DNA of 64,000 nt from an archaeon (GTDB lineage Archaea > Nanobdellota > Nanobdellia > Woesearchaeales > JAADFO01). The stretch lies in assembly GCA_043817075.1 (NCBI GenBank), contig JBDRHG010000014.1:21989-85988 (forward strand). The letters run 5' to 3'. The notes below the pieces were generated by a model. It worked only from the letters and a program-made list of their open reading frames with translations, did no database searches and was not told the origin of the DNA. The translations under genes were made by a program, and so were the position numbers. Shown piece by piece: positions 4,986 through 62,184 of the stretch (its first letter is position 1; each line of letters opens with the position of its first letter).

Positions 4986-5234
4986 AGTGGTGCATGGAGA
5001 GCTTCTCTTAATAAAAGTAATGATATGCTGCAGGTGGACCACACGAAAAGAGAAAAAACATAATCTATTGTTCCACAACATCAGACCACAATAGCGATAG
5101 GTTTATATACATTGTTTCTTTCACGAACCTCGCCACAACAGGGCAAATCATATGTTCAATAGGGGTGGCAGTCCAAGTCCAGACATCCGATAATGATACC
5201 CCAGAAAAATATGAATCTTCCAGGTGATCGCACC

Positions 5235-6014
5235 ATGGCACGCACACTCAACATCAAAGACCTCTCCGTGAGCACAGGAGGCAAGAACATCATCAGCGGT
5301 CTCTCCCTCGATGTGGAACAAGGGACAGTCCACGCCATCATGGGCCCAAACGGTTCGGGCAAGAGCACGCTCTCGTTCTCAATCATGGGCCATCCAGCAT
5401 ACAATGTGGACAAGGGTCAGATCCTCCTCGATGGAGAAGACATCAGCGATATGCCTGCCGACAAGCGGTCGAAGGCCGGCCTCTTCCTCTCGTTCCAATA
5501 TCCGAGCGAGGTCCCTGGCGTGACGTTGGCCAATTTCCTGCGTACCGCCATCAATGCGAGAAGAGAGAAGAGCGACAAGATCCCGATCCCCGAGTTCAAG
5601 AGATTGCTCGACGAGAAGATGGCACTCCTCAAGATGGACATGCGTTTCGCGGCGCGTTCCCTCAACCAGGGATTCTCGGGCGGCGAGAAGAAACGGAGCG
5701 AGATCCTGCAGATGTCGATGCTCTCCCCGGGCTTTGCCATACTCGACGAGACGGATTCCGGATTGGACATCGATTCACTCAAGATCGTGGCCGAAGGCAT
5801 CAATTCTCTCCGAGGACCTGACATCGGCATCCTGCTCATCACCCATTACCAACGTATCCTCCACTACATCAAGCCAGATATGGTCCATGTCATGATGGGC
5901 GGCAGGATCGTCGAGTCCGGCGGGTACGAGCTGGCCGAACGCCTGGAGAAAGAAGGTTATGGTTGGCTCGAGAACCGAGCGGATGAAGCCGACCGTAAGG
6001 AAATAGAGAAATAA
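5235..6014 (+). CDS. sufC: Fe-S cluster assembly ATPase SufC
   Basis: Walker [14 protein letters not shown] signature FSGGEKKR, and [10 protein letters not shown]. Start set at [12 protein letters not shown]. Confidence 0.9.
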
Positions 6015-6033
6015 TCCTGCATGGGGCGAGAGC

Positions 6034-7434: not shown

Positions 7435-7441
7435 AAACAAC

Positions 7442-8722: not shown

Positions 8723-8741
8723 TTGCACCCGGACAACCCCG

Positions 8742-19269: not shown

Positions 19270-20082
19270 CTAGCGTACACAAGCCTTTTTCATCTTTATG
19301 ATGAACGACTCAAGCGCTTTCTTGTCCGAGGACTGTTGTCCCATCAGATCGATGATTGCCGAACCGCAGATGACGCCGTCGGCTCCGGCTGCTGTCATGG
19401 ACTTGGCATGTTCAGGTTTGCTGATGCCAAAACCCACACAAAGAGGTAGGTCGGTCTTCTTCCGTAGCCCCGTAAGCATACCTGCTATACCGGCAGACAA
19501 CTCAGTCCGCGCACCTGTCACACCGACGGCGGACACTATATAGATGAAACCGGTCGTGCTGTCGATGATACTCGACAAGCGGCGAGGCGTGGTGAGTTCA
19601 GTGACGATGAAGACCGTGTCCAATCCATTCGCTTTTGCGGCAGCGACGAACGCATCGGCCTCTTCGACCGGCATGTCAGGGATGAGCACAGAATTGACGC
19701 CGGCAGACGCGCAATCTTCACAGAAAGCGTCGATACCGCGTTGGTAGACCAGATTTGCGTAGACGAGGAGGCCGATTGGCACATCAGTGAGCTCGCGGAT
19801 GTCCGTAATCATGGAGAAACAATCCGCAACAGTGATTCCCGCGTCCAATGCAGCGGTATCCGCATGTTGTATGGTCGGACCGTCTGCTATCGGATCCGAG
19901 AACGGAAACCCCAACTCCAGCATGTCGGCTCCTGAATCGATCATCCGTCTGATCATATCGATACTTCTCTTCCGATCAGGGAATCCCAGGACAGCGAAGG
20001 GCATGAACGCTGCGCGATCAGCAGAACGTGCGAAGCCATCAGCATAGGTCTGTCGACCAGATTCAGTTCCCATGCTGCACAC
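19270..20082 (-). CDS. trpA: tryptophan synthase alpha chain
   Basis: [18 protein letters not shown] and GFGISKPEH. Last gene of the trp operon. Confidence 0.9.
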
Positions 20083-21256
20083 CTCCTTTCTCTTTGATGT
20101 CCATGACCGTCGCTACATCCTTGTCTCCTCTCCCAGAGAGATTGATGAGCAATACATCATGGTCCTTTGCGATCTTCAGAGCATGTGCCACTGCGTGGGC
20201 CGACTCCAGAGCAGGGATGATCCCTTCTCTCTTCGATAGGGTGTGGAACGCATCAAGAGCCTCAGCATCTGTGATCGATACATAGCTGGCACGCCCGGCC
20301 TGACGGAGCGCTGAATGTTCGGGACCCACAGCAGGATAGTCGAGGCCTGCAGAGACGGAATGAGTCTCGAGGATCTGGCCGTCGGTGTCTTGGAGGACGA
20401 AGGTCTTGGTGCCATGGAGTATGCCGACCCTGCCCAATTTCTTGTCCCCGAACCTTGCGGCATGCTGACCAGAGGGTATCCCATGGCCGCCTGCTTCCAC
20501 GCCGATCAGGTCCACATCTCCATCATCAAGGAATGCACGGAATATGCCGATCGCATTGCTTCCGCCACCGACACAGGCGACGATCGCATCAGGCAACCTA
20601 CCCTCCTGTTCCAAGATCTGGGCACGGGCCTCAACGCCGATGACGGATTGGAAATGGGCCACGATCTCAGGGTATGGAGCTGGACCGAGCACACTTCCGA
20701 GAAGATAATGGGTGTCTTTGACGTTGGTGGCAAAATCACGCAGGGCCTGGTTGATCGCATCCTTCAATGTGCATGATCCGGTGGTGACCGGTATCACCTT
20801 TGCGCCCAGCAGTTCCATGCGAAAGACGTTCATCTTCTGTCGTTCTATGTCGACAGAGCCCATATAGATCTCACAGTCGAGACCGAGCTTCGCCGCAGCA
20901 GTGGCTGTGGCCACACCATGCTGGCCAGCGCCAGTCTCAGCGATGATGCGTCGCTTACCCATCCTCTTGGCGAGCAACGCCTGACCGAGCGCGTTGTTGA
21001 TCTTATGCGCGCCGGTATGCGCCAAGTCCTCCCGTTTGAGATATATCTTACAGCCGGTCTCGGATGAAAGATTAGGACAGTAAGTCAATGCTGTAGTCCT
21101 GCCGACAAAATTGGTGAGGAGGGATTTGAGCTCCTGCTGGAATGATGGATCGTTCTTGCTTTCCTCGAACGCCCGGTCCAATTCTTCCATCGCCGGCATG
21201 AGCAGCTCAGGCACGAACTGTCCGCCGAAATCCCCAAAATAAGTCGATTTTTTCAT
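20063..21256 (-). CDS. trpB: tryptophan synthase beta chain
   Basis: [16 protein letters not shown] (PLP lysine), GAGQHG and GGGSNAIG. Confidence 0.92.
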
Positions 21257-21265
21257 TTTGATGCC

Positions 21266-22729
21266 TCAGACCGTGATACGATGCGTCGATTTATTCGGCA
21301 TCACTTTCAGATCAGCTTTTTTGGTGCTGTCCAGGAAAGTCTCCATGAACTCATAGATAAGGTTTCCGTCTTTTATCCCTGGGGAAATTTCAAGGGATGA
21401 GCTCACATCCACACCATATGGACTGAGCGTCAACACCTCATGCACATTGTCTGCTGATATTCCGCCTGCGATCATGATCCTCTTTCCTGGATGATCATGA
21501 ATAGCTTCCTGTAATATACCAAGAGGGACACGTTTGCCTGTCCCGCCAAAGGATTCGGAGGAAAATGCATCGAGCAATATGATGTCGGCCGTACACGACG
21601 CGATCCGATCCAAGTCGCCCTGATCCCTTATCCTTAGCCCTTTAATGACAGGTAAGCCTAGCCGGTCTTTGATATCAGCGATGTATGCTTCATCCTCGTC
21701 TCCGTGGAGCTGCACCATATCAAGACCAACGACCTTGGCTGTTCCCACAACGGTCGAGATCTCCGCGTCCACAAACACGCCCACGGTACGGCATGAAGGA
21801 ACAGCTTTATTCACGCCATCGATGATGCCTATCGCTCTCTCGGGACTGATGTTCCTGGGAGATTTTGCTTCGAACACGAATCCCATCATATCCGCTCCGG
21901 CCTTGGCTGCACAGAGACCTGCGGTCAAATCGGCGATGCCACAGATTTTGACGCGTGGCGAAGATAGGGAACTCAGACGCTGTCCGATGTCATCAGCAGC
22001 CATGATGGTCGTGCCGATGAGGAAAGCACCCGCGGCATCCGATAATGAACAGATGTCAGAACGAGAGTTCATGCCTGATTCAGATACGATGATGATGCCT
22101 GAAGGAACGAGCTTGGCCATCCTCGAAGTGTGCTCTAGGTCGACCTCGAAGGTCCTCAGGTCCCTGTTGTTGATGCCGACGATTTTGGAATCGGCCTCGA
22201 TCGCCCTATCCAGATCCTGCGTGTCATGGACCTCGACCAGGGAATCCATGCCAAGGGAAGCGGCTAATGCTGAAAGTTCGGTGATCTCTTTCGAACTGAG
22301 AACAGATGCGATGAGCAATACCGCATCGGCGCCTGCATCCCGTGCCTCGTACACCTGATAAGGATCGATGATGAAATCTTTCCGTAGGATGGGCAAGGCG
22401 GTGACCGTCCTTGCTTGCCTGAGCATGTCGAGGGATCCAGAGAAGAAAGGCCCATCTGTCACGACCGAGACCGCATCCGCATAGAGGTCGTATATCGCTG
22501 CGACTTTGGCAGCATCGAGATCCTGACGGATCACACCTTTTGAGGGGGAAGCCTTCTTGATCTCGCAGATGATGGCCGGGCGAGGCCGAGCCAGAGCAGC
22601 AGAGAAGGAACGAGTGGACGGCCGAATAGATTGCCTGAAGCTCTCCAACGGACGCTCACGTTTGATCGACACGAGATCTTCCCGCTTACGCGAGATTATG
22701 CGGTCTAGGATGGGGATCTGTTCAGTCAT
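21266..22729 (-). CDS. trpC: bifunctional indole-3-glycerol-phosphate synthase / phosphoribosylanthranilate isomerase
   Basis: The N-terminal half is IGPS (ICEIKKASPSKG, LRKDFIID, GINNRDL). The C-terminal half is PRAI (VKICGI..., GADMMGFVF, LLDAFS...GGTG). Confidence 0.88.
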   Translation of the reverse strand: MTEQIPILDRIISRKREDLVSIKRERPLESFRQSIRPSTRSFSAALARPRPAIICEIKKASPSKGVIRQDLDAAKVAAIYDLYADAVSVVTDGPFFSGSLDMLRQARTVTALPILRKDFIIDPYQVYEARDAGADAVLLIASVLSSKEITELSALAASLGMDSLVEVHDTQDLDRAIEADSKIVGINNRDLRTFEVDLEHTSRMAKLVPSGIIIVSESGMNSRSDICSLSDAAGAFLIGTTIMAADDIGQRLSSLSSPRVKICGIADLTAGLCAAKAGADMMGFVFEAKSPRNISPERAIGIIDGVNKAVPSCRTVGVFVDAEISTVVGTAKVVGLDMVQLHGDEDEAYIADIKDRLGLPVIKGLRIRDQGDLDRIASCTADIILLDAFSSESFGGTGKRVPLGILQEAIHDHPGKRIMIAGGISADNVHEVLTLSPYGVDVSSSLEISPGIKDGNLIYEFMETFLDSTKKADLKVMPNKSTHRITV

Positions 22730-23819
22730 CTGACATCACCTTTTGGGCGAAATCCGACAGCCGCTCCAGAGTGTCTTTGGCCTTGCCGCTGGCGATTGAC
22801 TCACGAGCAAGTGTGATTCCGTCTTGAATTGAGCCGGCCTTGCCAGCGGCAGCGATAGCGAATCCGGCATTGAGCAGTACGATGTCTGTCTTAGGTCCTA
22901 CCTCACCATCAAGGATACGTCTGATGATAGCCGCATTATGATCAGGATCGCCGCCCTTGATATCATCCAGGCTCGCCCGACGCATGCCGAAGGTCTCAGG
23001 AGCGACAGTAGACGTGGTGACCGTTCTGCCGCGCACTTCGCTGACTATGGTCTCACCGTGGATGGCGACCTCATCGAGGCCGTCGCCATGGACCACATAT
23101 GCGTGGGTCGTTCCCAGCTTGGCCAAGACTTGTGCGAGTTTGCCGGTGAGATCAGGAGAGAACACACCGAGGAGCTGGCGAGAGCAGAAAGCAGGATTGA
23201 CGAGCGGCCCGAGCACGTTGAACACTGTCCTGATGCCGAGCTCCTTTCGAGGCATTGCCACATGTTTCATCGCCTTGTGGAAGGCGGGCGCGAACATGAA
23301 TCCGATGCCAACGGACTCGATGCAACTCCGCACCTGCTCGGGGCTCAAGTCGACCCGGACACCCAATGCCTCGAGGACGTCTGCGCTACCCGACCTACTC
23401 GACACAGATCGGTTCCCGTGTTTTGCGACCGTCACACCAGCCCCGGCCGCCACGATCGCGACCGCAGTCGAGATGTTGAACGTGCCGCTCGTATCACCAC
23501 CAGTACCGCAAGTGTCCAAGGCATGGGTATCGCTGACAGATATGCGTTCACACTTGGCCCGCATTGTCTCGCAGAATCCGGTGATCTCATCGACTGTCTC
23601 ACCTTTCATGCGGAGAGCGACGAGGAGTCCGGCGATCTGCGCTGGGGTCCCGTGGCCATCCATGATGGCAGACATCACATCCCTGGCCTGTCTCTGAGTG
23701 AGGTCATGACCTTCAACGACCATACGGATGCTATCCTTCAGCAACCCAGTCTGCTGCTCGTTTCCGATCCTTCCGTCTGAAGGACCTGAAGGACCTGAAG
23801 GACCTGAAGTCATCAACAA
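22722..23819 (-). CDS. trpD: anthranilate phosphoribosyltransferase
   Basis: DTCGTGGD, KHGNRSVSSRSGSADVLEALG and NPA motifs. Confidence 0.9.
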   Translation of the reverse strand: MLMTSGPSGPSGPSDGRIGNEQQTGLLKDSIRMVVEGHDLTQRQARDVMSAIMDGHGTPAQIAGLLVALRMKGETVDEITGFCETMRAKCERISVSDTHALDTCGTGGDTSGTFNISTAVAIVAAGAGVTVAKHGNRSVSSRSGSADVLEALGVRVDLSPEQVRSCIESVGIGFMFAPAFHKAMKHVAMPRKELGIRTVFNVLGPLVNPAFCSRQLLGVFSPDLTGKLAQVLAKLGTTHAYVVHGDGLDEVAIHGETIVSEVRGRTVTTSTVAPETFGMRRASLDDIKGGDPDHNAAIIRRILDGEVGPKTDIVLLNAGFAIAAAGKAGSIQDGITLARESIASGKAKDTLERLSDFAQKVMSDD

Positions 23820-24436
23820 TCACCTCCTGTCAGATTGTTCTGCACCGCATCAAGAAGATTCTGGATGATCCGTCCACCTTGCGTAGTCAGGATGCTCTCC
23901 GGATGGAACTGCACCCCTTCGACCAGCGTCTTGCAGGACGGATGTCTCAGAGCCATGACCGTCCCATCCTTGGCACGGGCGCTCACCTCCAGGCATTCAG
24001 GGATCACCGCACCGCAAAGGGAGTGATAACGTCCGACATGAAGAGGAAGCGGCAGACCGGTGAACAGAGTTTTTCCGTCATGGCCGATGGGCGATGCCTT
24101 GCCGTGCACGATCTCGTCTGCGCGCGCGACCTTCCCGCCGAAAGCCTCAATGATGGCTTGATGTCCGAGGCATACCCCGAATATCGGTATCCGGCTGGCG
24201 AATGCCTTGATGAGTTCTATGCATACACCTGCATCCGACGGAGTCGATGGACCAGGACTGATGATTATGAGAGAAGGATTGAACTCTGAGACCAACCGTC
24301 CTAACTCATCGAGTGTGATGGAGTTTCGTACCACATGCACCTCGCAACCGCGCTGCTCGAATTCGTTGACGAGATTATAGGTGAAGGAATCGAAGTTGTC
24401 GACCATGAGCACCGGAAGAGCCATCTTAGGGTTCAT
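23813..24436 (-). CDS. trpG: anthranilate synthase component II (glutamine amidotransferase)
   Basis: Triad region GVCLGHQ and FHPES. About 200 aa. Confidence 0.9.
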   Translation of the reverse strand: MNPKMALPVLMVDNFDSFTYNLVNEFEQRGCEVHVVRNSITLDELGRLVSEFNPSLIIISPGPSTPSDAGVCIELIKAFASRIPIFGVCLGHQAIIEAFGGKVARADEIVHGKASPIGHDGKTLFTGLPLPLHVGRYHSLCGAVIPECLEVSARAKDGTVMALRHPSCKTLVEGVQFHPESILTTQGGRIIQNLLDAVQNNLTGGDC

Positions 24437-26031
24437 CGTTCTTCACCTCCAAGAGCGGCGAGACATGCTTTGGCCTTATGCGCGGTCTCGGCGTATTCTA
24501 ATTCCGGTACTGAGTCGAATACGACCCCTGCACCTGCACGGATGAATGCTCTATTACCTCTGAGGACCACTGAACGGATGATGAGTGCCGAGTCCATGTC
24601 GCCGCTCGGTGTGAGGTATGCGACGGCCCCGCCATAATAACCCCGCTTGGACTTTTCATTGCGCCGGAGAAGGTCCATGGCCATGATCTTCGGCGCGCCG
24701 GTCACCGTACCCATGTTCATCACCGCGGTGTAGACATGGAGCGCGTCGAATCCCTTCCGTACCTTGCTTGAGACATTAGACACAAGATGTTGGACATGAG
24801 AATATTTCTCCACAATGAGCGGTTCGTCGCAGACCGTCGTCCCCGGCACCGAGACCTTGGCCAGGTCGTTCCTCGCGAGGTCGACGAGCATCATGTGCTC
24901 GGCCACCTCTTTCTTGTCTATCTTGAGCTCGGCCTCATAGCGGCTGTCGAGATCGATGTTGAGCTCGCCATCGATGAGCCCCCTCGGTCGGGTGCCGGCG
25001 ATCGGTCTGATCTCGGCTGTCTTCTCAGCGTCGCGGCCATCACCGTTCTTGCCTTGGACGCGCACCGCCATCTCAGGGGATGATCCGATGAGATGATGGT
25101 CGCCGTTGCAGAAGAAGAACATGTACGGTGAGGGGTTGAGCCGGGAGAGGCGGATATATGTTCTGAAAGGATCGTCGTCATAGTCTGCGATGATGGTGCG
25201 GGACGGCACGATCTGGAAGACATCGCCGGCCTTGACATGCTCACGCATGTTAGTGACCGTCTGGATGTATTCATCTTCAGTGGTGTCGGACCGCAGCTGA
25301 TCGGTCCCCGAAGATGCCGCAGGGAACGGTTTCAGGGACGATGGAACGCCCTGCTCCAACGCCTTCCTGTAGGGAACAAAAAGTCTTTCGCATTCCTCAG
25401 ACGAGCGAACGATGCCCCTCCCTGACAATGATGCGGCTATGATATGCATCTCGTCCTTCTTGTGGTCGACCACGAACAGGTTGTCGGCGAAATAGAACAC
25501 ATAATCGGGTGTGCCGATGATGTCCTCCGCACTAGGCGACAAGGTCTCGAATTGATCGATGAAATCATAGGAGAAGATGCCGAACAGCCCGCCGTAAGGG
25601 ATGGTCGGCTTTCCCTCCGGCTTGAACATGAACGCGATGCGTCGGAGGATCTCCGTATGATTGATCGAGGTCAGACGTTCCATCTCATCAGCATGATCCG
25701 CCAGGCTCCGCGAGACAAGACGTCCTTTGAGACTGTCCCCATCCATCCGAATATCATCGACGAAGGAAAGCTCTTCCTGGATGGGACCGAGAAGCTTGCT
25801 GCCAAGCGGAGTGAGGGCCTCGATGAAGAATCGATCCCCATTCCCGACGATGCGTAGGCAAGGAGCATGAGTGCCTATCGAGTGCTCGCCGTATTTCGGG
25901 ACGATGTCCTTCGACTCGAGCAGGAAATGGTACTCGCTCCCTTTGGTCAATGCGCGGTAATAGTCGTCGATGCTCACAGGTCGCTTGACTGTCTTGACGA
26001 TAGGACGTAAAGAGATAGGGGTATCAGGCAC
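24433..26031 (-). CDS. trpE: anthranilate synthase component I
   Basis: Chorismate-binding blocks SPEMAVRV, GTRPRG, GAPKIMAM and GGAVAY. Confidence 0.9.
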   Translation of the reverse strand: MPDTPISLRPIVKTVKRPVSIDDYYRALTKGSEYHFLLESKDIVPKYGEHSIGTHAPCLRIVGNGDRFFIEALTPLGSKLLGPIQEELSFVDDIRMDGDSLKGRLVSRSLADHADEMERLTSINHTEILRRIAFMFKPEGKPTIPYGGLFGIFSYDFIDQFETLSPSAEDIIGTPDYVFYFADNLFVVDHKKDEMHIIAASLSGRGIVRSSEECERLFVPYRKALEQGVPSSLKPFPAASSGTDQLRSDTTEDEYIQTVTNMREHVKAGDVFQIVPSRTIIADYDDDPFRTYIRLSRLNPSPYMFFFCNGDHHLIGSSPEMAVRVQGKNGDGRDAEKTAEIRPIAGTRPRGLIDGELNIDLDSRYEAELKIDKKEVAEHMMLVDLARNDLAKVSVPGTTVCDEPLIVEKYSHVQHLVSNVSSKVRKGFDALHVYTAVMNMGTVTGAPKIMAMDLLRRNEKSKRGYYGGAVAYLTPSGDMDSALIIRSVVLRGNRAFIRAGAGVVFDSVPELEYAETAHKAKACLAALGGEER

Positions 26032-26941
26032 TCCGAGCCACCTCCATCGGATGGCTGGAGAGATCAGCCGAAAGGGTGATCAAGGGCCGTAAGTCATCGA
26101 CGAGAGCGCTCATCTCCGGAATGTTGAGCTGCTGATCGGCATCGCTCAACGCGACTGAAGGATCAGGATGGCATTCGACCATGATGCCATCCCCGCCGAC
26201 CGCCAGGATGGCTTTCGACAATGGTCCGATGAGGGATTTGATGCCGGACGCATGGCTTGGATCCCCGATGACCGGCAGATGTGTGAGCTGCTTGAGCAAC
26301 GGGATCGCCGAGATGTCGAGGGTGTTTCTGGTGCGGGTCTCGAATGTGCGGATACCACGTTCGCAGAGGATGATGTTGGGATTGCCGTGTGCCGCGACAT
26401 ACTCTGCTGCATGCATGAATTCATCGATGGTGGAGGAGAATCCCCGTTTCAGCAGGATCGGATTGCTGACCTCGCCGACTTTCTTGAGAAGAGCGAAGTT
26501 CTGCATGTTGCGTGACCCGATCTGCAGGATGTCAGCATGCTCGGCCACGAAAACGACCTGCTCAGGCTCCATCACTTCAGTGACCGTGACCATACCTGTG
26601 GCGCGGCCGACCCGTTCAAGGATGAGGATGCCTTCCTGGCCAAGCCCCTGGAAAGAATACGGCGAGGTCCGAGGCTTGAATGCTCCTCCTCTGAGGAATG
26701 AGACGCCCATTCCCTTGAGGGCCTGGGCTGCTGAGAGCATCTGGGATTCGGATTCGATAGCGCAAGGGCCGCCGATGATGATCGGCAGATCGCCGCCGAC
26801 GGTATTCCCTTTGATTGTGATGATAGTGTCCTCGGAACGGGAATCCCGGCTGACTGCGAGCGTCGCTGGCTTGGTCATCGTCTTTTGGTTGGTCGCGGCC
26901 TTCTCGGCCGTTTTTTCGATGGTGATGGTTTTTTGGTTCAT
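26024..26941 (-). CDS. 3-deoxy-7-phosphoheptulonate (DAHP) synthase, class I-beta (KDO8PS-like)
   Basis: IIGGPCAIES, FLRGGAFKPRTSPYSFQGLG and GDPSHA are typical of the family. Overlaps the trpE start by 8 nt. Start set at the ATG 8 nt after GGAGG; the track start is a TTG. Confidence 0.8.
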   Translation of the reverse strand: MNQKTITIEKTAEKAATNQKTMTKPATLAVSRDSRSEDTIITIKGNTVGGDLPIIIGGPCAIESESQMLSAAQALKGMGVSFLRGGAFKPRTSPYSFQGLGQEGILILERVGRATGMVTVTEVMEPEQVVFVAEHADILQIGSRNMQNFALLKKVGEVSNPILLKRGFSSTIDEFMHAAEYVAAHGNPNIILCERGIRTFETRTRNTLDISAIPLLKQLTHLPVIGDPSHASGIKSLIGPLSKAILAVGGDGIMVECHPDPSVALSDADQQLNIPEMSALVDDLRPLITLSADLSSHPMEVARSA

Positions 26942-48244: not shown

Positions 48245-48324
48245 GATGATGACCTCGTATTCTGAAATCTTACAGCTAGCGCTTGCATATAAAGCTTGCG
48301 CACGGCTTTATAATAAACAAGAAA

Positions 48325-48677
48325 AAAAGGGTTTCTCGGGCCTAAGCAACTCCGTTGCTTTAGGGCCCCGGGAAAAACAGAAAAAAACAGAAAAGTAGGA
48401 CTACCATAACAATTCTTTCGCCAATTGGAAGCGAAATACGTTTCGCCTACGGCTCAAGCGTACAAAATAAAGAAAAGTAGGACTACCATAACAATTCTCT
48501 CGCCAATTGGAAGCGAAATACGTTTCGCCTACGGCTCAAGCGTACAAAATAAAGAAAAGTAGGACTACCGTGATTCTCACCGGCTTTTTAACAAACCCGA
48601 AGAAACCCTGTTTCTTGGGCCCAAGCAACTCCGTTGCTTTAGGGCCCCGGGAAAAACAGGAAAAAAAGAGAGAAAAG
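48325..48677. repeat. composite repeat block 3' of tRNA-Pro: GGGCC-hairpin module, two perfect-tandem 82-bp units, third partial unit plus second hairpin module
   Basis: 82-bp units at 48391-48472 and 48473-48554 differ at one base. Each starts AAAAGTAGGACTACC, mimicking the tRNA 3' end AAAAGTGGGGCTACC at 48673. The hairpin module GGGCC[CT]AAGCAACTCCGTTGCTTTAGGGCCCC occurs at 48338-48369 and 48617-48649. Confidence 0.85.
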
Positions 48678-48793
48678 TGGGGCTACCGTGATTTGAACAC
48701 GGGTCGCCAGCTGTCCGTCTCATCGTGGCCGCCTAGCGGCGGCATCTCGACGAACCCCGAGCTGGAGTGATAGCCAAGCTACACTATAGCCCC
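48678..48793 (-). tRNA. tRNA-Pro-like gene with ~42-nt intron in the anticodon loop (anticodon read as GGG; loop UCGGGGA)
   Basis: Acceptor GGGGCUA/UAGCCCC, T arm CCGUG-UUCAAAU-CACGG, anticodon stem CCAGC/GCUGG. The insert, about 48713-48754, folds into a relaxed bulge-helix-bulge. Isotype and exact splice sites were hand-derived, and C at position 33 is unusual. Confidence 0.7.
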
Positions 48794-48937: not shown

Positions 48938-50536
48938 ATGAGGAAAAGAGGTCTAGCGAAAACGTGGAAATGGTTCATCGGCGCCGTGATCGCGGCGGTC
49001 ATCATCATGGTGATCTTAGGAACAATAGGGATACTGTTCTTCAAATTCACTGAAAAAAGTAGCGGAAGGCTTCTCTCAGATTCCGGGATGTACTCAAAGA
49101 ATGATATGATGACAGAAGGATTCTACGGCGGCATGCCTCCGCCGGGAATGGAGCCTCCCAACGACGAACCGTATGATACCACTTTCTTCGAGAACTACGG
49201 CGTCAATCCATTCATCGCGACCGAGGATGAGGCCTTCTCGACCTTCGGCATGGATGTCGACACCGCAGCGTACACCATCGTGCGACGCTGGATCGAGGAC
49301 GGAAACATGCCTGACAAGGACTCGGTCCGTACAGAAGAGTTCATCAACTATTTCGAACAGGATTACCCTACGCCTGACGATACCTTCGACATCAATCTCG
49401 AGGGAGCAGAATCGCACTTCGGCCAGCCCAACTATCACCTTTTGCGGGTCGGCATCAAGGCAAGAGAGGTATCGTTCGCCGACAGGAAACCAGCGAATAT
49501 GGTCTTCGTGGTCGATGTTTCTGGCTCGATGGATAGAGAAGACCGCCTCGAGGCGGTCAAGAAGAGCCTCAGGATGTTGGCCGATCAGCTCAAACCCGAC
49601 GACAAGATTGGACTGGTCATCTACGGAAGCACCGGCAAGAAGATCTCTGACCTGACCTCCGACAAGAACAGCATCATGAATGCCATCGAAGAGCTCGTGT
49701 CCGGCGGTTCGACCAATGCCGAGCAAGGCTTGACCATCGCATATGACATGATGAGGGAAGGCTTCGAGCCTGGTAAGATCAATCGCGTCATCCTCTGCAG
49801 CGATGGCGTGGCCAATGTCGGCCGCACCGGAGCGGACTCCATCCTCACCCAGATCAAGAAAGATGCTGATAAAGGGATCACATTGACCTCGCTCGGATTC
49901 GGCATGGGCAATTACAACGACGTCATGATGGAGAAGCTCGCCAACCACGGCGATGGTAACTACTATTACATCGACACCGACGAGGAGGCCCAACGTCTCT
50001 TCTCTGACGGGGCAACCAGCATGCTGCAGGTCGTGGCATCGGACGCCAAGATCCAGGTCGAATTCAACCCGGATACGGTCGACCGCTTCCGCTTGCTCGG
50101 CTATGAGAACCGGCGCTTGGAGAAAAAGGATTTCGAGGACGACACAGTAGATGCAGGCGAAGTGGGTGCTGGCCAGACCGTGACCGCACTCTACGAATTA
50201 CGCATCAAGGACGACGCGGTCAATGATGCCAGCCAGAAGATCGCGGACGTGCACGTCAGGTACCTCGATATCGACACCAAGGAGATCAAGCAGCAGGAGA
50301 CATCGGTGAATGTAGGTGATATGGCAAGTCCTTTCGACAGCGCTAGCGGCCGGTTCCGGTTCACCGCTGCGGTGGCCGAGTTCGCCGAGATCCTCAAAGA
50401 GAGCTACTGGGCCAAAGACAGCACGCTCGAGGATGTGCTCGGTGTCGCGCAGGACGCGATCAAGGACATTGATAAGGACGACAAGGACACGGAGTTCGTC
50501 ACGCTCGTCAAGAAGGCGATGAAGATAGAGGATTGA
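48938..50536 (+). CDS. von Willebrand factor type A domain protein, N-terminal membrane anchor
   Basis: TM at the N-terminus and the MIDAS motif VFVVDVSGSM in a vWA domain. The C-terminal region resembles bacterial YfbK-type proteins. Confidence 0.8.
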   Translation: MRKRGLAKTWKWFIGAVIAAVIIMVILGTIGILFFKFTEKSSGRLLSDSGMYSKNDMMTEGFYGGMPPPGMEPPNDEPYDTTFFENYGVNPFIATEDEAFSTFGMDVDTAAYTIVRRWIEDGNMPDKDSVRTEEFINYFEQDYPTPDDTFDINLEGAESHFGQPNYHLLRVGIKAREVSFADRKPANMVFVVDVSGSMDREDRLEAVKKSLRMLADQLKPDDKIGLVIYGSTGKKISDLTSDKNSIMNAIEELVSGGSTNAEQGLTIAYDMMREGFEPGKINRVILCSDGVANVGRTGADSILTQIKKDADKGITLTSLGFGMGNYNDVMMEKLANHGDGNYYYIDTDEEAQRLFSDGATSMLQVVASDAKIQVEFNPDTVDRFRLLGYENRRLEKKDFEDDTVDAGEVGAGQTVTALYELRIKDDAVNDASQKIADVHVRYLDIDTKEIKQQETSVNVGDMASPFDSASGRFRFTAAVAEFAEILKESYWAKDSTLEDVLGVAQDAIKDIDKDDKDTEFVTLVKKAMKIED

Positions 50537-50570: not shown

Positions 50571-50793
50571 GAAGAAAAGAAAATGGGGCGACCAGGACAA
50601 TTCTTTCGCCAATTGGAACCGATGTACGTTTCACCTAACGGCTCAAGCGTACAAAAAAAAAGCGACCGTGATGCCCACTGGCTTTTTAGCAAACCCGAAG
50701 AAACTATGTTTCTTGGGCCCAAGCAACTCCGTTGCTTTGGGAACCCGGAAAAAACAAAACTTAGCAAAACCACCACACATGAAGAAAAGAAAA
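50571..50793. repeat. copy of the tRNA-associated repeat element, bounded by a 28-bp duplication of the tRNA-Phe 3' end
   Basis: GAAGAAAAGAAAATGGGGCGACC[A/G]GGA occurs at 50571-50598 and again at 50781-50808, where it is the real tRNA 3' end. Between them are the same modules as at 48473-48660. Confidence 0.85.
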
Positions 50794-50924
50794 TGGGGCG
50801 ACCGGGATTTGAACCCGGGACACCTAGATATCTGATAATCATAGGCCCGCAGGCCCATTCATATCCAGGCAGTGACGCCGTGGCATCTTCAGTCTAGTGC
50901 TCTCCCAGACTGAGCTACCGCCCC
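50794..50924 (-). tRNA. tRNA-Phe(GAA) with 57-nt intron at 37/38
   Basis: GGGGCGG-UA-GCUC..GAGC-A-CUAGA-CUGAAGA ... UCUAG-GUGUC-CCGGG-UUCAAAU-CCCGG-UCGCCCC-A. The intron is about 50830-50886. CUGA (positions 32-35) pairs with UCAG in the intron, flanked by 3-nt bulges AGA and AUA (BHB). Confidence 0.85.
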
Positions 50925-50977
50925 AATTCCATGAGGAACAGAGTTCCTCGGGTGCCAGCAATTCATTGCTGAGCACT

Positions 50978-51025
50978 TTCGCCAATTGGAAGCGAAGTGG
51001 GTTTCGCTACGCTCAAGCCCACGAT
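50978..51025. repeat. third, diverged copy of the TTCGCCAATTGG... module, on the 5' side of tRNA-Phe
   Basis: TTCGCCAATTGGAAGCGAAGTGGGTTTCGCTACGCTCAAGCCCAC aligns with 48417-48466 and 50605-50655. Confidence 0.75.
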
Positions 51026-51076
51026 ATATAAAGGATGGCTGGACAGAAGTCCAGATCCATTTAAAAAGATGCCGGT

Positions 51077-56350: not shown

Positions 56351-57823
56351 ATGAGAAAATCAAAACATCCCCATCAACAATACCTCATCACCATCGGCGT
56401 GATGATCGCGCTCATGGTGTTGGCCGCGTCCTCTTTGCCTATCGCGATGGCGCTCAAATTCCTCACGTCGATCTTCGCGCCTGCTTTCTCTTTCGTCAAG
56501 GCCTATATGCTGTGTGGATTCATCGCATTATCCTGTGCCGTACTGCTGATCAACTGGAGACCGAGTCCGAAGCTCGTACGCCGGGCCAATATAAAATTCC
56601 TAGTGATGATCGGCTCCGTGCTCTTGCTGGGCATCGCATCGCATATCGCTGTCGTGTCCACGTTGGACCTCCCGGCGTTCTCCCATCTCGACGTGGTCAA
56701 GGATGGCCACATATCGTCGTCGAAGATAAACCACATCCACTCCCTCAAACCCATCATCCATCTCCTCGGATCAATCATGCCCGGCGGGCTATCTGACACC
56801 TATGACCATGGGGGACCTTTCGTCGGCCTCGTGCCAAATGTGATCATCATCCCTGCAGCGCTGTTTTTCGTGGTCGCTTTCCTCGCATACTTCCTGGTGC
56901 TCATGGCAAAGGAGAAGATGTGGAAGAAGGAGGGTCGACTGTATCTCTTGCCGTTGTTCATCATCGTATCGTTCACCGTGCTCAAGTCGCTGATCGACGG
57001 TGGACTGTTCACCTATGAGATGCTCCTCGGCGGGCCCATCCTTGTCTGGCTCACCCTATCCAGAAAACCGGTGATGCGATGGCGTAAGACTGCCGCTTGG
57101 ACTGCGGGAGTGCTCCTCGGAGCCATGATCATCGATGCCATCATCAGCGAGTTGATCTACCCTGTCGATGTCCCGAGCAAGCTCTACTATTTCGTGGCTC
57201 CCGGTATTGTGCTGATGGCGTCATTCCTCGCCATCTACCTCATTCCACGGTTCACTGCGGAGCACAAGCGGATAGGATTGATAATCACACCAATCATCTA
57301 TATCTTGATCCTCATCGTGACCATACAAGGGATGTCAACATTCTATGAGATCAAGTTCCTGACAAGGGAGATACCTGGAGGCTCCAACATCAGGTTCGTC
57401 ACCGACCTGCCTGTAGACGGATTGACAAAGGTTTATCAGGATGGAACCAGATATGTATATGACACAAAGTTGGATAGCGGATACCGCTTTTCCGATCTCA
57501 TCCAGCGTTACGACCTGAACCCTTCATGGTATCCAATCGATATCGTCGATGTGGATTGCGGATCAGAGGACACAAACCAGTTCATCATGAAACTTCATAT
57601 CATCAAGGCTACGGATTCGGCGATGAAAGGAAAACCCGGACCATCACCAAATGAGGACTATATCTGGATTCACAAGATTACAGGATGCGAAGAGAAAGGG
57701 TGCGACCAAGAACTCACGCTGCAATCGAAGGGTTGCACGTCTTCCCCACGTAACATGATGGCAAGCTTCCTGACCTATGTCGGTTACGATTGGTTCGTCA
57801 TCCTCGACACAGGCATCAAGTGA
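56351..57823 (+). CDS. hypothetical polytopic membrane protein with C-terminal soluble Cys-containing domain (paralog B)
   Basis: Lies 12 nt after paralog A. Collinear similarity over the full length, including the motifs listed for paralog A. Confidence 0.65.
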   Translation: MRKSKHPHQQYLITIGVMIALMVLAASSLPIAMALKFLTSIFAPAFSFVKAYMLCGFIALSCAVLLINWRPSPKLVRRANIKFLVMIGSVLLLGIASHIAVVSTLDLPAFSHLDVVKDGHISSSKINHIHSLKPIIHLLGSIMPGGLSDTYDHGGPFVGLVPNVIIIPAALFFVVAFLAYFLVLMAKEKMWKKEGRLYLLPLFIIVSFTVLKSLIDGGLFTYEMLLGGPILVWLTLSRKPVMRWRKTAAWTAGVLLGAMIIDAIISELIYPVDVPSKLYYFVAPGIVLMASFLAIYLIPRFTAEHKRIGLIITPIIYILILIVTIQGMSTFYEIKFLTREIPGGSNIRFVTDLPVDGLTKVYQDGTRYVYDTKLDSGYRFSDLIQRYDLNPSWYPIDIVDVDCGSEDTNQFIMKLHIIKATDSAMKGKPGPSPNEDYIWIHKITGCEEKGCDQELTLQSKGCTSSPRNMMASFLTYVGYDWFVILDTGIK

Positions 57824-59267
57824 CCCGTCGGACTTCCATGACGTCGACGTCCTCCTTGACCGGAGAGATGTCAGAAACCGCGACGATGAGGTCGCCCCTG
57901 CGAAGCAGGCCTTTCTCTTTCAAGAGTTTCATGGCGTCCTCTGTCATCTCCTCGATGGTGTTCTCGTAGTTGGAGACGAAGGGTGTGACGCCCCAGATGA
58001 CAGCTGATTTCCTGCGGACGCCTTCATCAGGGACAAAGGAGTAGATCGGCGCGGTGGGCCGGTTTTTGGATACGAGACGGGACAGCTTTCCGGTATTGGT
58101 GAACACCAGGATGGCCTTGGCGCAGAGGCTCTCGGCGCTGATGCATGCATCCCTCGTGATCTCGTGCTTGACGCTCTTGACCTTGCCGTTCGTCTCGAGG
58201 TTCGGGACGGTCTCCCGCTCGACACGCAAGGCGATTCGCACCATGGTCTCGACCGAGGCGATCGGATATTTCCCTTTCGTGGTCTCGGCCGATAGCATGA
58301 GGCAGTCGGCGCCTTCGAACACCGCATTGGCCACGTCGGTGACCTCCGCCCTAGTGGGGCGGGGATGATGCACCATGGACTCGAGGAGATGGGTGGCGAC
58401 GATGACTGGCTTGGCATGCTTGATGCATTTCTTGGTGATGCTGCGCTGCACGATCGGGACGTCTTCGAGGGGGATTTCCACACCGAGGTCGCCGCGGGCG
58501 ATCATGATGCCGCTCGATGCCTCGATGATCTCATTGATGTTCTTGATGCCTTCAATATCCTCGATCTTCGATATGATGCGGGCATGCGCCTTTCTCTCCT
58601 TGAGGTGTTTGCGTAGCTGCACGACATCATCCTTGCTGCGCACGAAAGACATGGCGATGAAATCGACATCATGCTTGATGCCGAAATCGACATCGACGAG
58701 GTCCTTCTTGGTCAACGTCGGGGTGTTGATGTGGACGCCCGGGAGGTTGATGGCCTTACGGGAACCCAGCACGCCAGCGTTCTCCACACGGCAGGTGATC
58801 TGGTTGTTCGAGATGTCGGTGATCTCCGCACGGATGAGACCGTCGTCGATGAGTATGAAATCTCCGACCTTAACATCGTGGATGAGGTTCTCGTAATTGA
58901 CACTGGTCTGTATGACGCCTTCTCCCCCGATCTCTTTAGCCGACCCGACGCTGATGCGCAGCTTATCGCCCTCTTTGAGGTTGACATCCTCGGTTATCTT
59001 GCTGGTGCGGATCTCAGAACCTTGGGTATCAAGAAGGATTGCGATATTGCTGTCCTTCTCCTCGTTGATCTTGCGGACATTGTCGATGATCTCTTTGGCG
59101 GACTTGTGGGTCGCATGGGACATGTTGATGCGCACAACGCTCATCCCTGCGGCGGCCAGTTTCTCCAGCTGTTCTTTCGAACTGGTCACAGGTCCTATAG
59201 TCGCGATGATCTTCGTCTTCCGGGAAGGTTTGTCGGATGGCATTGTGGCATTGTTCATGGGGGACAC
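57816..59267 (-). CDS. pyk: pyruvate kinase
   Basis: [36 protein letters not shown] and [12 protein letters not shown]. Confidence 0.9.
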
Positions 59268-60017: not shown

Positions 60018-60692
60018 ATGAAAGCCGACGAATTTCGGAAAAATGTACTTGTGGTATTGCCAAAACAGTACCGTCTCCTCTTGGGATGCTATTTAAAGAA
60101 TCCTCAGGCTTCGTACAAAGAGATTATCAATGATACTGGCATGAGTGCAGCTATCATTGCACATGCGAAGCATGATTGCATGAACTTGGGGTTCATGACA
60201 AATGGGTCGGGATGTAATGTCACGCCCACAGGTAATTTATTTTTAAAGTTACAATCTGACTCAAAAGAGGAGTGGGAGGCACTTCATGATAATGCACTCA
60301 AGATAGACTTGTTCCGAGAATTACATAGTGGTCTTGGCTCTAAGCCTAAGCGACATGAAATCTTCGGTGTCTTGAGGGCTAAAGCTCCAGAAAATTATGC
60401 AAAACGAATCATTCAACGAATTGTGAGACGATATTATCAGTATGTTATAGGTATAAAAGTCATGCCTAAGGGCCGCTCATTAAAACCTAACGAGATAGGG
60501 AATCAAACGACCATCAACATTGTCAAGTGGACAAATGATTGTGATGTATGGAGTTTTCTCGTTAAGAAATATCATCTATCAGGAGATGAACTCAAGCACA
60601 TCATTGAAGCATTTCCAAAGTTGGCAAAGAAGGAAATTGATGAAGAGATGCTTAATGAGCATATAAAAAAAAAATATGGGGAGCTGGTGTAG
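60018..60692 (+). CDS. hypothetical protein (possible N-terminal wHTH), transposon cargo
   Basis: 224-aa AT-rich ORF. No recognisable catalytic motif. The last 15 nt overlap the 5' end of tRNA-Thr. Confidence 0.5.
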   Translation: MKADEFRKNVLVVLPKQYRLLLGCYLKNPQASYKEIINDTGMSAAIIAHAKHDCMNLGFMTNGSGCNVTPTGNLFLKLQSDSKEEWEALHDNALKIDLFRELHSGLGSKPKRHEIFGVLRAKAPENYAKRIIQRIVRRYYQYVIGIKVMPKGRSLKPNEIGNQTTINIVKWTNDCDVWSFLVKKYHLSGDELKHIIEAFPKLAKKEIDEEMLNEHIKKKYGELV

Positions 60693-60748
60693 TGATAGCA
60701 TCCCGGCCTTGTGAGCCGGTGATCCGGGATCAAATCCCGGGCTCCCCA
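60678..60748 (+). tRNA. tRNA-Thr(UGU), atypical D and T loops
   Basis: GGGGAGC/GCUCCCC acceptor, anticodon arm CCGGC-CUUGUGA-GCCGG, T arm CCGGG-AUCAAAU-CCCGG. The D loop AGUGAUA lacks the usual GG, and position 54 is A. Confidence 0.75.
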
Positions 60749-60754
60749 TTTTTT

Positions 60755-60828
60755 GGGCTGGTCGTCTAATCTGGAAAGGACAGGTACCTACTGAGTGTCG
60801 AATCCGGGTTCAAATCCCGGCCAGCCCA
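60755..60828 (+). tRNA. type-I tRNA with anticodon ACU (Arg-UCU-like body)
   Basis: GGGCUGG/CCAGCCC acceptor, D arm GUCU-AAUCUGGAAA-GGAC, anticodon arm GGUAC-CUACUGA-GUGUC, 4-nt variable loop, T arm CCGGG-UUCAAAU-CCCGG. Followed by a TTTTTT run. Confidence 0.7.
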
Positions 60829-60998
60829 CCGTTTTTTAATATAAAATGCCAGTGACAGTGGAACCCAGATAAATGCCTAAGAAGCATTTAGTGGCTGTCA
60901 CCAACAAAAACATGTACGATAACTTAGTTTATATAGAATGGGTATAATTTGTAACGAATTGGTATAATATCTAATGTTTTGATATTTGAACTGTATTT

Positions 60999-61160
60999 TT
61001 AGTCTTTCTCAATGATGAGTTTCTCATCATGAATTTCTGCTTCGAGTTCTTGTCCTGTTTTCCACCCTAACTTCTCTATGAGTTTGTTTGGTATGACAAT
61101 CCAGTGTTTCTGGTATGCTTTGCCTTTGTATTCGCTGTGTTTTTGGCTTTGGAGCTTCAT
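60999..61160 (-). CDS. AbrB/SpoVT-type (swapped-hairpin) small DNA-binding protein, 53 aa
   Basis: Hand translation: MKLQSQKHSEYKGKAYQKHWIVIPNKLIEKLGWKTGQELEAEIHDEKLIIEKD*. The segment IVIPNKLIEKLGWKTGQELEAEI..EKLII fits the AbrB-domain pattern. Below the ORF-track length cutoff. Confidence 0.6.
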   Translation of the reverse strand: MKLQSQKHSEYKGKAYQKHWIVIPNKLIEKLGWKTGQELEAEIHDEKLIIEKD

Positions 61161-61165
61161 AATGT

Positions 61166-61270
61166 CTTTGGGTACCTTATTCCTTTAAATAGTTTTTGGT
61201 ACCCGAAACTATGTTTTAGGTACACAATATTTGGGTACCAAAATACTTATATAGTTTATTGGGTACCCAA
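61166..61270. promoter_or_regulatory. array of five GGTAC[CA] palindrome-centred motifs between the divergent AbrB-like and transposase genes
   Basis: TTTGGGTACCTTA (61171), TTTTGGTACCCGAAA (61198), TTTAGGTACACAA (61219), TTTGGGTACCAAAA (61234), TATTGGGTACCCAAA (61262). All lie within about 100 bp, and the last ends 8 nt before the transposase ATG. Confidence 0.55.
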
Positions 61271-61275
61271 ACTGT

Positions 61276-62184
61276 ATGAGTCAGCAAATAAGATGTATCC
61301 ACTGCAAAGCCACCAACTACACCAAGAAAGGCTTTCGCAAGACCGAGAACCGAGGAAAAATCCAGAAATACCAATGTACAGAGTGTGGTCAGTACTTCAC
61401 CAATGATGAAGGTTTCTACCGTATGCGAAACTGCGAGAAGATTGTCACGATGAGCGTTGATATGTACCTATCAAATCTGTCCTCTCGTAAGATGAGGAAT
61501 CAGTTAAAGCGACATATGGATACGAAGATAAGTCACGTCTCCGTCCTTGATTGGGTGCGTAAATACGTTCTGAAAGTCCAGCACTACATTGAGAAGTTCA
61601 CGCCGAAACTGTCCGGTAAGTTCTATGTGGACGAAACGGATATTCCGAGGGGTTGCAACACGAAAAAGAAGGGCGGTGACAAGTTCTGGTGTTGCGTCGA
61701 TTGGGAAACCAGATACATCAACGCCACCATGTACAGTCCGAAGAATCAAAGCGTAGCGGAAGCCACGAGGTTTCTTAAAAAGACTGTTAAGCATGGTAAA
61801 CCGAAATTCATCCAGACTGATGCGGCAAAGTTTTACCCTAAAGCCATGAGACGATGTTTCTCCACGAACACAACTAAGGGATTCACTATTGGCGGAGAGA
61901 AGCGAATAGGTGTTGAACACCGTATTAACAACGTCAGCAAGACCAAGAAGCATAACGTAAGAATAGAAACTGTGTTCTCAAAGATTAAAGATCGTGTGGA
62001 TGACTTCCGAGGAATCAAAGCCCTATGGAGTGCCCCAATACTTCTCGCAGGAATAGTCTTGCAACATAACTTTATCGAGGCCCACACCACGACAGGAGCA
62101 ATACCTTCAGAACTCGCAGGAATAGGTTATCAAACAGGAGAAAACAGATGGTTGGAACTTATTAGAGTTTCCGCTTATTCTTAA
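61276..62184 (+). CDS. DDE transposase with N-terminal zinc ribbon (IS6/IS240-like)
   Basis: Zinc ribbon CIHCKATNY...YQCTECGQYF. DDE candidates are FYVDETDI, FIQTDAAKFYPKA and NVRIETVFSKIKDR, with a LQHNFIEAH tail. The pattern is that of DDE_Tnp_IS240 as I recall it. Confidence 0.7.
   Translation: MSQQIRCIHCKATNYTKKGFRKTENRGKIQKYQCTECGQYFTNDEGFYRMRNCEKIVTMSVDMYLSNLSSRKMRNQLKRHMDTKISHVSVLDWVRKYVLKVQHYIEKFTPKLSGKFYVDETDIPRGCNTKKKGGDKFWCCVDWETRYINATMYSPKNQSVAEATRFLKKTVKHGKPKFIQTDAAKFYPKAMRRCFSTNTTKGFTIGGEKRIGVEHRINNVSKTKKHNVRIETVFSKIKDRVDDFRGIKALWSAPILLAGIVLQHNFIEAHTTTGAIPSELAGIGYQTGENRWLELIRVSAYS

Follow-up and report, generated by a model that had tools for sequence, protein, structure and literature searches.

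A small structured element that probably inserts behind tRNA and protein-coding genes of Woesearchaeota-type archaea by duplicating the gene end

In a 64,000-nucleotide (nt) stretch of an archaeal contig (JBDRHG010000014.1, 21,989-85,988; hereinafter, the window, the positions of which serve as coordinates throughout, loci outside it being denoted by L-numbers), the genes for tRNA-Pro(GGG) and tRNA-Phe(GAA) are followed by direct repeats of their own 3' ends. The sequence evidence makes it likely that these repeats were produced by a small structured non-coding mobile element of about 55-75 nt, here denoted E, which appears to be non-autonomous and to generate long, variable target duplications behind tRNA and protein-coding genes alike. 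E belongs to a family with a structure supported by covariation; its copies obey a simple duplication rule and are co-oriented with the upstream gene; filled sites have empty counterparts in relatives; and independent insertions into the same gene end are observed.

A family of structured elements in DPANN archaea

How widespread is this element? The 20-mer TCGSTTCCAATTGGCGARAG occurs at 14 archaeal loci of a species-representative genome collection, along with two bacterial chance matches; and a 21-mer of the E core hits 41 metagenomic loci, approximately 39 of them real. Altogether, some 50 distinct copies of E besides those in the window are present in Woesearchaeota-type metagenome-assembled genomes (MAGs) and in metagenomes. 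The hosts are Woesearchaeota-type DPANN archaea; in one sample, a genome of roughly 1 Mb has about 10 copies. A covariance model, R1, recovers approximately 65 copies at E-values below 1e-6, of which the window contains four and the empty-site loci discussed below contain none. Viral contigs contain no matches to E or to the module cores, and the phage and plasmid collections none to E. The sequence-only reading of the window had proposed, as one of two options, a miniature non-autonomous element, and this is supported, the element being multi-copy. Plain local tandem duplication or replication slippage at the two tRNA loci, with neither a family nor mobility, is refuted and receives virtually no credence from us: the 82-bp tandem repeat behind tRNA-Pro, with its 97% identity, could be explained in this manner, but not the same core and the same junction rule at about 50 unrelated loci in many genomes. 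In the window itself, the module cores occur four and three times, against zero expected from 100 shuffles.

Rfam 15, including ribozymes and C/D and H/ACA small RNAs, yields nothing relevant at E-values up to 10 between positions 48000 and 51400 of the window besides tRNA-Phe, nor any gathering-level match in 70 kb of related loci, and full-text searches of the literature found no description of E. To the extent that Rfam and such searches can tell, the family has not been described before; it is common in DPANN genomes, and none of the known classes of mobile elements or RNA families accommodates it. One of the host MAGs, CAYLMH01 (L002, L003, L007, L013, L016), is titled 'uncultured Methanosarcinales', which is doubtful because its NDP-sugar pyrophosphorylase is 88-95% identical to proteins from Woesearchaeota MAGs.

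E consists of two parts (ends 5' GU(A/G).. and ..GAAUUG 3', which are not complementary). The first part is a hairpin, P1, with an apical mini-stem of 2-3 bp flanked by conserved G-A ... G-A (tandem G·A). The second part is the near-invariant UCGCUUCCAAUUGGCGAAAGAAUUG, which is predicted to be capable of forming a UCGC/GCGA hairpin, and the core would also allow an alternative or pseudoknotted helix, CCAAUU/AAUUG(G). Among 25 distinct copies, double-sided compensatory changes are found in six of the seven P1 pairs, with 96.6% of the cells paired, and in both pairs of the mini-stem; the observed covariation is reached by none of 500 shuffles, and no slid register comes close. The sequence of the P1 stem varies among E subfamilies through such compensatory changes. 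The counts of G·U versus A·C in P1 give no strand signal and are uninformative because the stems are nearly all Watson-Crick. An extra hairpin pair is accommodated in either loop of the putative pseudoknot (L022, L027, L049 and the copy in the leader of the window tRNA-Phe), and one variant has ACGC..GCGU in place of AAUU..AAUU.

At L002, L013, L020, L028, L032 and L059, E is embedded in a composite repeat of about 200 nt, between the inverted flanks GTCAGGGGGACCCATTGCA ... TGCAATGGGGTATTATTG, without a gene-end duplication and without an Rfam match; this composite may be a carrier resembling transposable elements of the miniature inverted-repeat type (MITEs) or a larger structured RNA. The motif GGGATTCAAAAGCAnTAAGGCGA, which recurs in Woesearchaeota intergenic spacers (L016, L019, L032, L059, L060), may be another dispersed repeat or a promoter or leader motif.

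The duplicated gene end

The two flanks of E are related to each other. In approximately two thirds of the copies, a segment X', which starts 0-5 nt past the terminal GAAUUG (GAATTG in DNA), repeats the segment X located just upstream of E, where X represents the terminal part of the closest gene upstream, encoded by the same strand. Of the 33 scored cases, 27 have a co-oriented upstream gene, and in three of the six exceptions a co-oriented tRNA gene lies in between. The duplication is 16-107 nt long (about 6 nt at one open reading frame (ORF) start, L056), and its right boundary coincides with, or follows, the oligo-T in tRNA trailers or lies 0-14 nt past stop codons. The targets include at least 12 tRNA identities, among them Pro(GGG) and Phe(GAA) within the window and Leu(GAG), Leu(CAA), Leu(TAA), Val(CAC), Gln(TTG), Pro(TGG), Arg(TCT), Ser(GCT) and Thr(GGT) outside it, and at least 15 protein-coding genes, such as those for SBDS, TldD, an EamA transporter and NDP-sugar pyrophosphorylase, with no shared core sequence. 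Behind protein-coding genes, X' re-encodes the last 5-23 codons together with the stop (for example, SETVKIERI*, KYHHVCHH*, AKQVGIHQKGEYVIKVR* and HKQFSQVPAGCDPDKLGCSNAYS*).

These observations put the tRNA mimicry, from which the sequence-only reading started, in a different light. The proposal that the tRNA-like segment matches the local tRNA holds at every tRNA-associated locus examined, and many copies are indeed adjacent to tRNA genes; tRNA 3' ends are, however, not the only targets, given that about equal numbers of copies reside behind protein-coding genes. Thus, the kind of element was recognized correctly, but its interpretation through tRNA targeting and att sites was too narrow. Because X' copies whatever co-oriented gene end lies upstream, protein-coding genes included, the tRNA association is a special case, and an X' located behind a tRNA gene necessarily looks like a mimic of the tRNA 3' end; because insertion duplicates the target, the mimicry is a by-product. 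The suggestion of a functional 3'-trailer RNA fared no better, as no test supported a tRNA-related function.

Another conceivable origin of the serial tRNA ends is repeated integration and excision of larger integrative elements by a tyrosine integrase at tRNA genes, which would make the repeats attL/attR-type scars and E a conserved attP arm. There is something to be said for this explanation. The direct repeats start in or beside the T loop, and repeats that begin at or near the T loop are a known feature of class II tRNA integration sublocations; in E subfamilies, different tRNAs are preceded by constant T-arm-like extensions (GAATTGGTGAGAAGC; GGTTCACATC; GGTTCTGTATCC); and the most distal repeat at tRNA-Pro (X3 in Table 1) resembles a hybrid of fossil and native tRNA ends. 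However, a common core is missing across the tRNA and protein-coding targets, the repeat length ranges from 16 to 107 nt, a mere 55-190 non-coding nt separate the repeats, 408 kb of flanks and the scanned ORFs of the window yielded neither an integrase nor another recurrent gene, and the viral, phage and plasmid collections contain no match. We regard this possibility as largely refuted and very improbable.

Evidence of mobility

The case for mobility comes, above all, from the gene for NDP-sugar pyrophosphorylase (NTP-transferase) at L016. Its relatives at L060/L061 and L067 (95% protein identity), L068/L069 (90%), L070 (88%) and L066 (83%) lack E and possess a single gene end, that is, they are empty sites. 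L016 and L029/L055 have this gene end occupied by E copies from different subfamilies, whose duplications start at different points (6 versus 10 codons), so that the insertions are independent. X and X' are identical at L022, L029, L042, L051, L041 and L015, which are recent insertions. At L041, the duplication boundary falls within the last codon; as it stands, the gene terminates in ..AIS*, with a stop codon contributed by the E leader, and X' retains the native ..AII*; the stop codon at L027 likewise comes from the 5' leader of E. At L051 (AAGAATTG, the longest), L025 and L005, the 3' end of E shows microhomology with the gene sequence that lies 5' of X. Tandem E-X' arrays are present at the tRNA-Pro locus of the window and at L015/L023, L024 and L055. 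On the reverse strand of L055, about 290-330 nt from the locus start, the E array is followed by a third, partial copy of the last codons that lacks E and is set off by 'TG' (GTTTAG-TG-TGGAATGATATTGTATGA), and then by the next gene; this copy may be an excision footprint, and a search for such E-less footprint duplications with Tandem Repeats Finder (TRF) produced only low-complexity repeats.

What could mobilize E? All-against-all ORF comparison detected no recurrent protein family next to E in 408 kb of flanks, the only shared neighbours being syntenic housekeeping genes, and the absence of a recurrent protein linked in cis implies that E is non-autonomous. The scanned window ORFs encode housekeeping proteins except for one IS6-type transposase 10 kb away, and neither an integrase nor a reverse transcriptase is found among them or in the 8-14 kb flanks of the host loci.

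The two tRNA loci of the window

The window contains four copies of E, all associated with tRNA-Pro and tRNA-Phe (Table 1). Both tRNA genes have long anticodon-loop introns, and tRNA-Pro is missed by default ARAGORN and by the Rfam gathering threshold, being recovered only with aragorn -i.

Table 1. Features of the tRNA-Pro and tRNA-Phe loci in the window
Feature	Position	Strand	Evidence or score
tRNA-Pro(GGG), 42-nt intron; 3' part is the native target copy X0	48677..48793	-	aragorn -i and sequence reading
T-rich trailer of tRNA-Pro, then module A copy 1 with tail UUUGUUAAAAAGCC	48582..48676	-	folding, minimum free energy -35.3 kcal/mol, z = -2.9
Module A copy 1 proper, two hairpins	48596-48651	-	
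X1: degenerate T arm GGTGAGAATCACGG, acceptor 3' strand TAGTCCTA, discriminator and T-run	48546..48581	-	
E copy B1: P1 hairpin GUACG..CGUAU, then UCGCUUCCAAUUGGCGAGAGAAUUG	48492..48545	-	covariance model, 40.7 bits
X2, target-duplication copy: TTAT GGTAGTCCTAC TTTTCTTTATTTT	48464..48491	-	
E copy B2	48410..48463	-	covariance model, 44.9 bits
X3 and partial module A copy 2	48303..48409	-	alignment score 121
tRNA-Phe(GAA), 57-nt intron	50793..50925	-	Rfam, 53 bits; aragorn -i
Composite insertion 3' of tRNA-Phe: leader, module A, fossil T-arm-like segment, E	50598..50780	-	covariance model, 38.1 bits
Module A of the composite	50694-50748	-	
Fossil T-arm-like segment of the composite	50653-50681	-	
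E of the composite	50598-50652	-	
X' TCCTGGTCGCCCCATTTTCTTTTCTTC: T-stem 3' strand, acceptor 3' strand and trailer of tRNA-Phe	50571..50597	-	
Fourth E copy, 5' leader of tRNA-Phe	50924..51032	-	covariance model, 41.3 bits; minimum free energy -35.8 kcal/mol, z = -3.0

At tRNA-Pro, three successive segments beginning with AAAAGTAGGACTACC start at positions 48391, 48473 and 48555, as the sequence-only reading had it, to be compared with AAAAGTGGGGCTACC at 48673 in the tRNA itself. The units 48391-48472 and 48473-48554 differ by one base, and the third segment runs on into a degraded T arm, CCGGTGAGAATCACGG, the real one being CCGTGTTCAAATCACGG. Each 82-bp unit (TRF: period 82, 2.3 copies, 97% matches) is composed of a 54-nt E with TTAT-GGTAGTCCTAC-T-run behind it. 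Relative to the native tRNA-Pro, the changes in the successive copies are exclusively C>T, two in X1 and four in X2/X3, all compatible with G·U pairing. The X3 region, a 107-nt duplicate of the acceptor 3' strand, trailer and module A of the tRNA-Pro locus with about 85% identity, terminates beside the trkA promoter region.

The same modules recur at tRNA-Phe, where the mimic copies the 3' end and trailer of that tRNA instead, exactly as had been noticed: X' is identical to the native X (50781-50807) at 26 of 27 positions. The earlier inspection passed over a fourth core copy, directly upstream of tRNA-Phe. In this leader, P1 and the core occupy positions 50976-51022, next to a TATA-like TTTATATA at 51025-51032; two extra hairpins precede GAAUUG, which adjoins position +1 of the tRNA.

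Module A is predicted to form a stable three-way junction, with AAGCAAC/GUUGCUU inside GGGCCC/GGGCCC plus AAGAAAC/UUUCUU. Hairpins similar to those of module A are found in the tRNA-Phe leader, with compensatory differences (AAGCAAC/GUUGCUU versus CAGCAAU/AUUGCUG; AAGAAAC/GUUUCUU versus GAGGAAC/GUUCCUC). The module has three copies in the window and none at any related locus examined outside it; it is lineage-specific and was probably co-mobilized with E, and with these three copies at hand it could be either an accessory domain of E confined to this lineage or a native tRNA-trailer structure that travelled along with E. A SNORD88-like match on the opposite strand of module A was dismissed, with 22 bits versus a gathering score of 46.

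How E might insert

The scenario that we favour, and consider likely, is the following. E would insert in the sense orientation just behind a tRNA or protein-coding gene, and the insertion would duplicate from about 6 to 107 bp of the target, a long and variable segment. The upstream copy, X, would keep the gene intact, and the downstream copy, X', would begin right where E ends with its precise 3' GAAUUG. Tandem E-X' arrays would then arise through unequal recombination between the duplicates or through re-insertion. In the window, module A, the fossil tRNA end and E appear to have travelled together, as a composite, from a tRNA-Pro-like site to tRNA-Phe. With regard to enzymology, two routes come to mind because the 3' junction is exact, the 5' junction is ragged (0-14 extra nt), the duplication is variable, microhomology is occasionally present and the orientation is sense: an RNA-templated or template-switch process akin to target-primed reverse transcription (TPRT), or a DNA insertion at staggered nicks by a trans-acting enzyme that would recognize the folded element. 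Composite copies that carry upstream sequence along belong to the same picture. The RNA-mediated version of the insertion we consider rather unlikely.

A more specific and still bolder form of this version would hold that E is a promoter-less structured RNA carried by read-through transcripts, and that target-primed or template-switch synthesis returns it to DNA where transcription units have their 3' ends, the gene end being co-copied. We view it as a tentative possibility, on balance doubtful, and the same doubt extends to the variant in which the scaffold would turn the duplicated gene end into a self-programmed guide. In tRNA duplicates that contain the T loop, the differences involve positions 57-58 (A58>C at L040 and L045; GA>TGT at L033/L044 and L036/L012), the site of the m1A/m1I modification. 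These changes could be a signature of reverse transcription or, because they co-vary with the E subfamily, subfamily fossils. A diversity-generating retroelement (DGR) was rejected: the substitution spectrum is not A-specific, and no reverse transcriptase is found beside the loci.

Several facts do not sit comfortably with a mobile element of this kind. The enzymology is read from the anatomy of the junctions, with neither an enzyme found nor an RNA or DNA intermediate observed. About one third of the E copies, some of them in the composite with inverted flanks, have no detectable duplicate. The 25-nt core of E is perfectly conserved across very divergent hosts, and E is retained at orthologous sites (L003/L047, L001/L011), which would fit a host-beneficial RNA just as well. 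The tRNA-Pro locus can alternatively be read as the outcome of recombination between an element-borne fossil tRNA end and the native end, in line with the hybrid appearance of X3. Puzzling, too, is the pattern of divergence between X and X'. Over 13 protein-gene loci, there are 60 differences, 54 of them synonymous (stop-to-stop included) and six non-synonymous, and 49 of the 60 are at third codon positions; at the orthologous loci L003/L047, codons specific to X' are shared, and the X' copies differ by seven changes, all synonymous. A neutral duplicate should not behave like this, that is, X' fails to decay in the way such a duplicate would. Three explanations appear possible: the differing alleles were imported by homologous recombination with related strains, with tracts ending in the conserved E; X' is under coding selection, via frequent precise excision between X and X' or removal of X-S-E; or X' must keep matching the gene.

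The last option is what would be demanded by a guide model, in which E is the scaffold and X' the guide, following the logic of TnpB omega-RNA, Cas12 CRISPR RNA (crRNA) or the homing crRNA of CRISPR-associated transposons (CAST), with an effector encoded in trans that would employ E-X' to find the matching gene end, in homing or regulation. In this model, it makes sense that a conserved structured scaffold runs, at a fixed junction, straight into a variable sequence that is the same as in a nearby target; likewise accounted for are the tracking of the gene by X' at the level of synonymous variation, the tandem scaffold-'spacer' arrays and the targets themselves, namely the 3' ends of conserved genes and tRNAs, which CAST homing guides are known to target. 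However, the 'guide' would range from about 6 to 107 nt, and one third of the copies have no matching target; in recent insertions, X' equals X and comes from the local sequence, and the subfamilies at one gene differ in the start point, as duplication predicts; an intact target beside its own guide would amount to self-targeting; and no linked effector gene is found in the flanks. The differences between X and X' concentrate at the two edges of the repeat and not at one end, as a seed would suggest, which is not decisive. All in all, the guide model appears improbable. A guide array of the CRISPR or TIGR type was rejected, the array 'spacers' being copies not only of each other but also of the gene end upstream.

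Could E instead be an RNA module used by the host, such as a 3'-end stabilizer, a terminator, a ribonucleoprotein site of the L7Ae type or a removed intervening sequence, with X and X' both serving as functional ends? The invariance of the 25-nt core, the fact that E is unchanged at the orthologous L003/L047 loci where the flanks diverge by about 10%, the apparent coding constraint on X', the strand-specific conserved G-A/G-A purines with the invariably sense orientation and the existence of a copy that is the leader of tRNA-Phe behind a TATA box would all find an explanation. Nevertheless, close relatives do well with empty sites, and independent recent insertions along with tandem amplification are the behaviour of a selfish element. 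Furthermore, on reading of the sequence, the variable X and the constant E lack the complementarity for a bulge-helix-bulge or another splice structure. Compared to the K-turn, the G-A/G-A around the covarying 2-3-bp stem is conserved, with a bulge of 1-3 nt that is asymmetric on both strands; the internal loop of P1 does not look like a canonical K-turn, the 3-nt bulge being absent in most subfamilies. We therefore deem a host module unlikely. A bulge-helix-bulge intron, a hammerhead and a ribozyme similar to that of hepatitis delta virus were also discarded by inspection, the required pairings or core motifs being absent.

Comparison with known systems

The reading of E as a mobile element that duplicates gene ends can be set against the better known systems. 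Integrative elements that target tRNA genes share with E the direct repeat of the tRNA 3' part, often from the T loop, and the intactness of the gene after insertion, and the same gene-preserving logic is known for integrative elements that target the 3' ends of protein-coding genes; E differs by the absence of an integrase and cargo, by dozens of unrelated targets, by the variable repeat and by the 55-75-nt structured body. The similarity to short interspersed nuclear elements (SINEs) and non-LTR (long terminal repeat) elements that employ TPRT, such as R2 and the SINEs mobilized by L1, is more extensive: non-autonomy, variable target duplications, a precise 3' versus a ragged 5' junction, occasional 3' microhomology, sense co-orientation with probable host-gene co-transcription, composites resembling 5' transduction, and tandem arrays. 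Unlike these, E is archaeal and has no A-rich or simple-repeat tail, GAAUUG being joined directly to X', its duplications reach 107 bp, and no reverse transcriptase partner is found in the flanks.

With TnpB/IscB omega-RNA and the CAST homing crRNA, E has in common a structured scaffold followed by a target-matching segment, and a frequent choice of tRNA genes or conserved-gene 3' ends as targets; in E, however, the match is directly upstream in cis, is made by duplication and is not of fixed length, there is no linked nuclease or transposase and no Rfam match, and the scaffold is much shorter than omega-RNAs. MITEs, REP/BIME, Correia, RPE and the IS200/IS605-derived PATEs resemble E in their small size, lack of coding capacity, multiple copies, hairpins and predominant location directly behind genes. 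However, MITEs have terminal inverted repeats and short target duplications of fixed length, both of which are missing in E (inverted flanks being confined to one composite subfamily), and REP and PATE elements make no target duplication, in contrast to the strict sense orientation and long gene-end duplications of E. IS200/IS605 derivatives likewise insert without a target duplication, whereas E has one and has no adjacent ORF. Homing-endonuclease or mobile-ORF insertions in organelle genes supply a replacement 3' gene end, with the functional copy upstream and the displaced one downstream, the two differing mainly by synonymous substitutions; these insertions encode their own endonuclease, whereas E encodes nothing. 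The junction features fit no MITE, IS200/IS605 derivative, att site, DGR or guide array; they resemble those of SINE-type TPRT or template-switch retroposition, or of an insertion at staggered nicks.

Genomic surroundings

The glycyl-tRNA synthetase encoded in the window has its best named matches in DPANN, Woesearchaeota and Nanoarchaeota (57-66% identity). Between the two tRNA loci, at 48938-50536 (+), lies a gene for a VWA/YfbK-type protein, the best named homologues of which are bacterial (Chloroflexi and similar, 50-72% identity); it was probably acquired horizontally by an otherwise DPANN-like chromosome. The window also encompasses a suf Fe-S operon (5193-9959), a tryptophan-biosynthesis operon with DAHP synthase (20063-26941) and pyruvate kinase (57816-59258), a biosynthetic capacity that exceeds the usual DPANN level. 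At 60677-62184, an adjacent tRNA pair, Thr(TGT) and a second one called Ser(ACT) by ARAGORN, precedes an ORF (61276-62184) for a DDE transposase of the IS6/IS240 type; E was not found at this site. A 26-nt direct repeat at 3206-3231 and 3341-3366 (81% identity, 135-nt spacing), in or beside an ORF, is unrelated to E.

Implications

To our knowledge, almost no mobile elements have been characterized in DPANN archaea, the genomes of which are tiny and gene-dense. By duplicating the gene end, E would insert into such genomes without breaking genes, which explains partial tRNA genes and pseudo-C-termini that otherwise would be misread as att sites, tRNA fragments or pseudogenes. The family furnishes a new, strongly conserved structured-RNA motif, with the covariance model R1, that is absent from Rfam. 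The excess of synonymous differences between X and X' might be a sign of very high recombination in these populations or, alternatively, of a function of the displaced copy. The anatomy of the junctions points to an insertion mechanism that has not been described in prokaryotes, and if the copying back of read-through transcripts were to prove true, E would be the first SINE-like retroposon of prokaryotes, with the E-X' chimeras as its signature.

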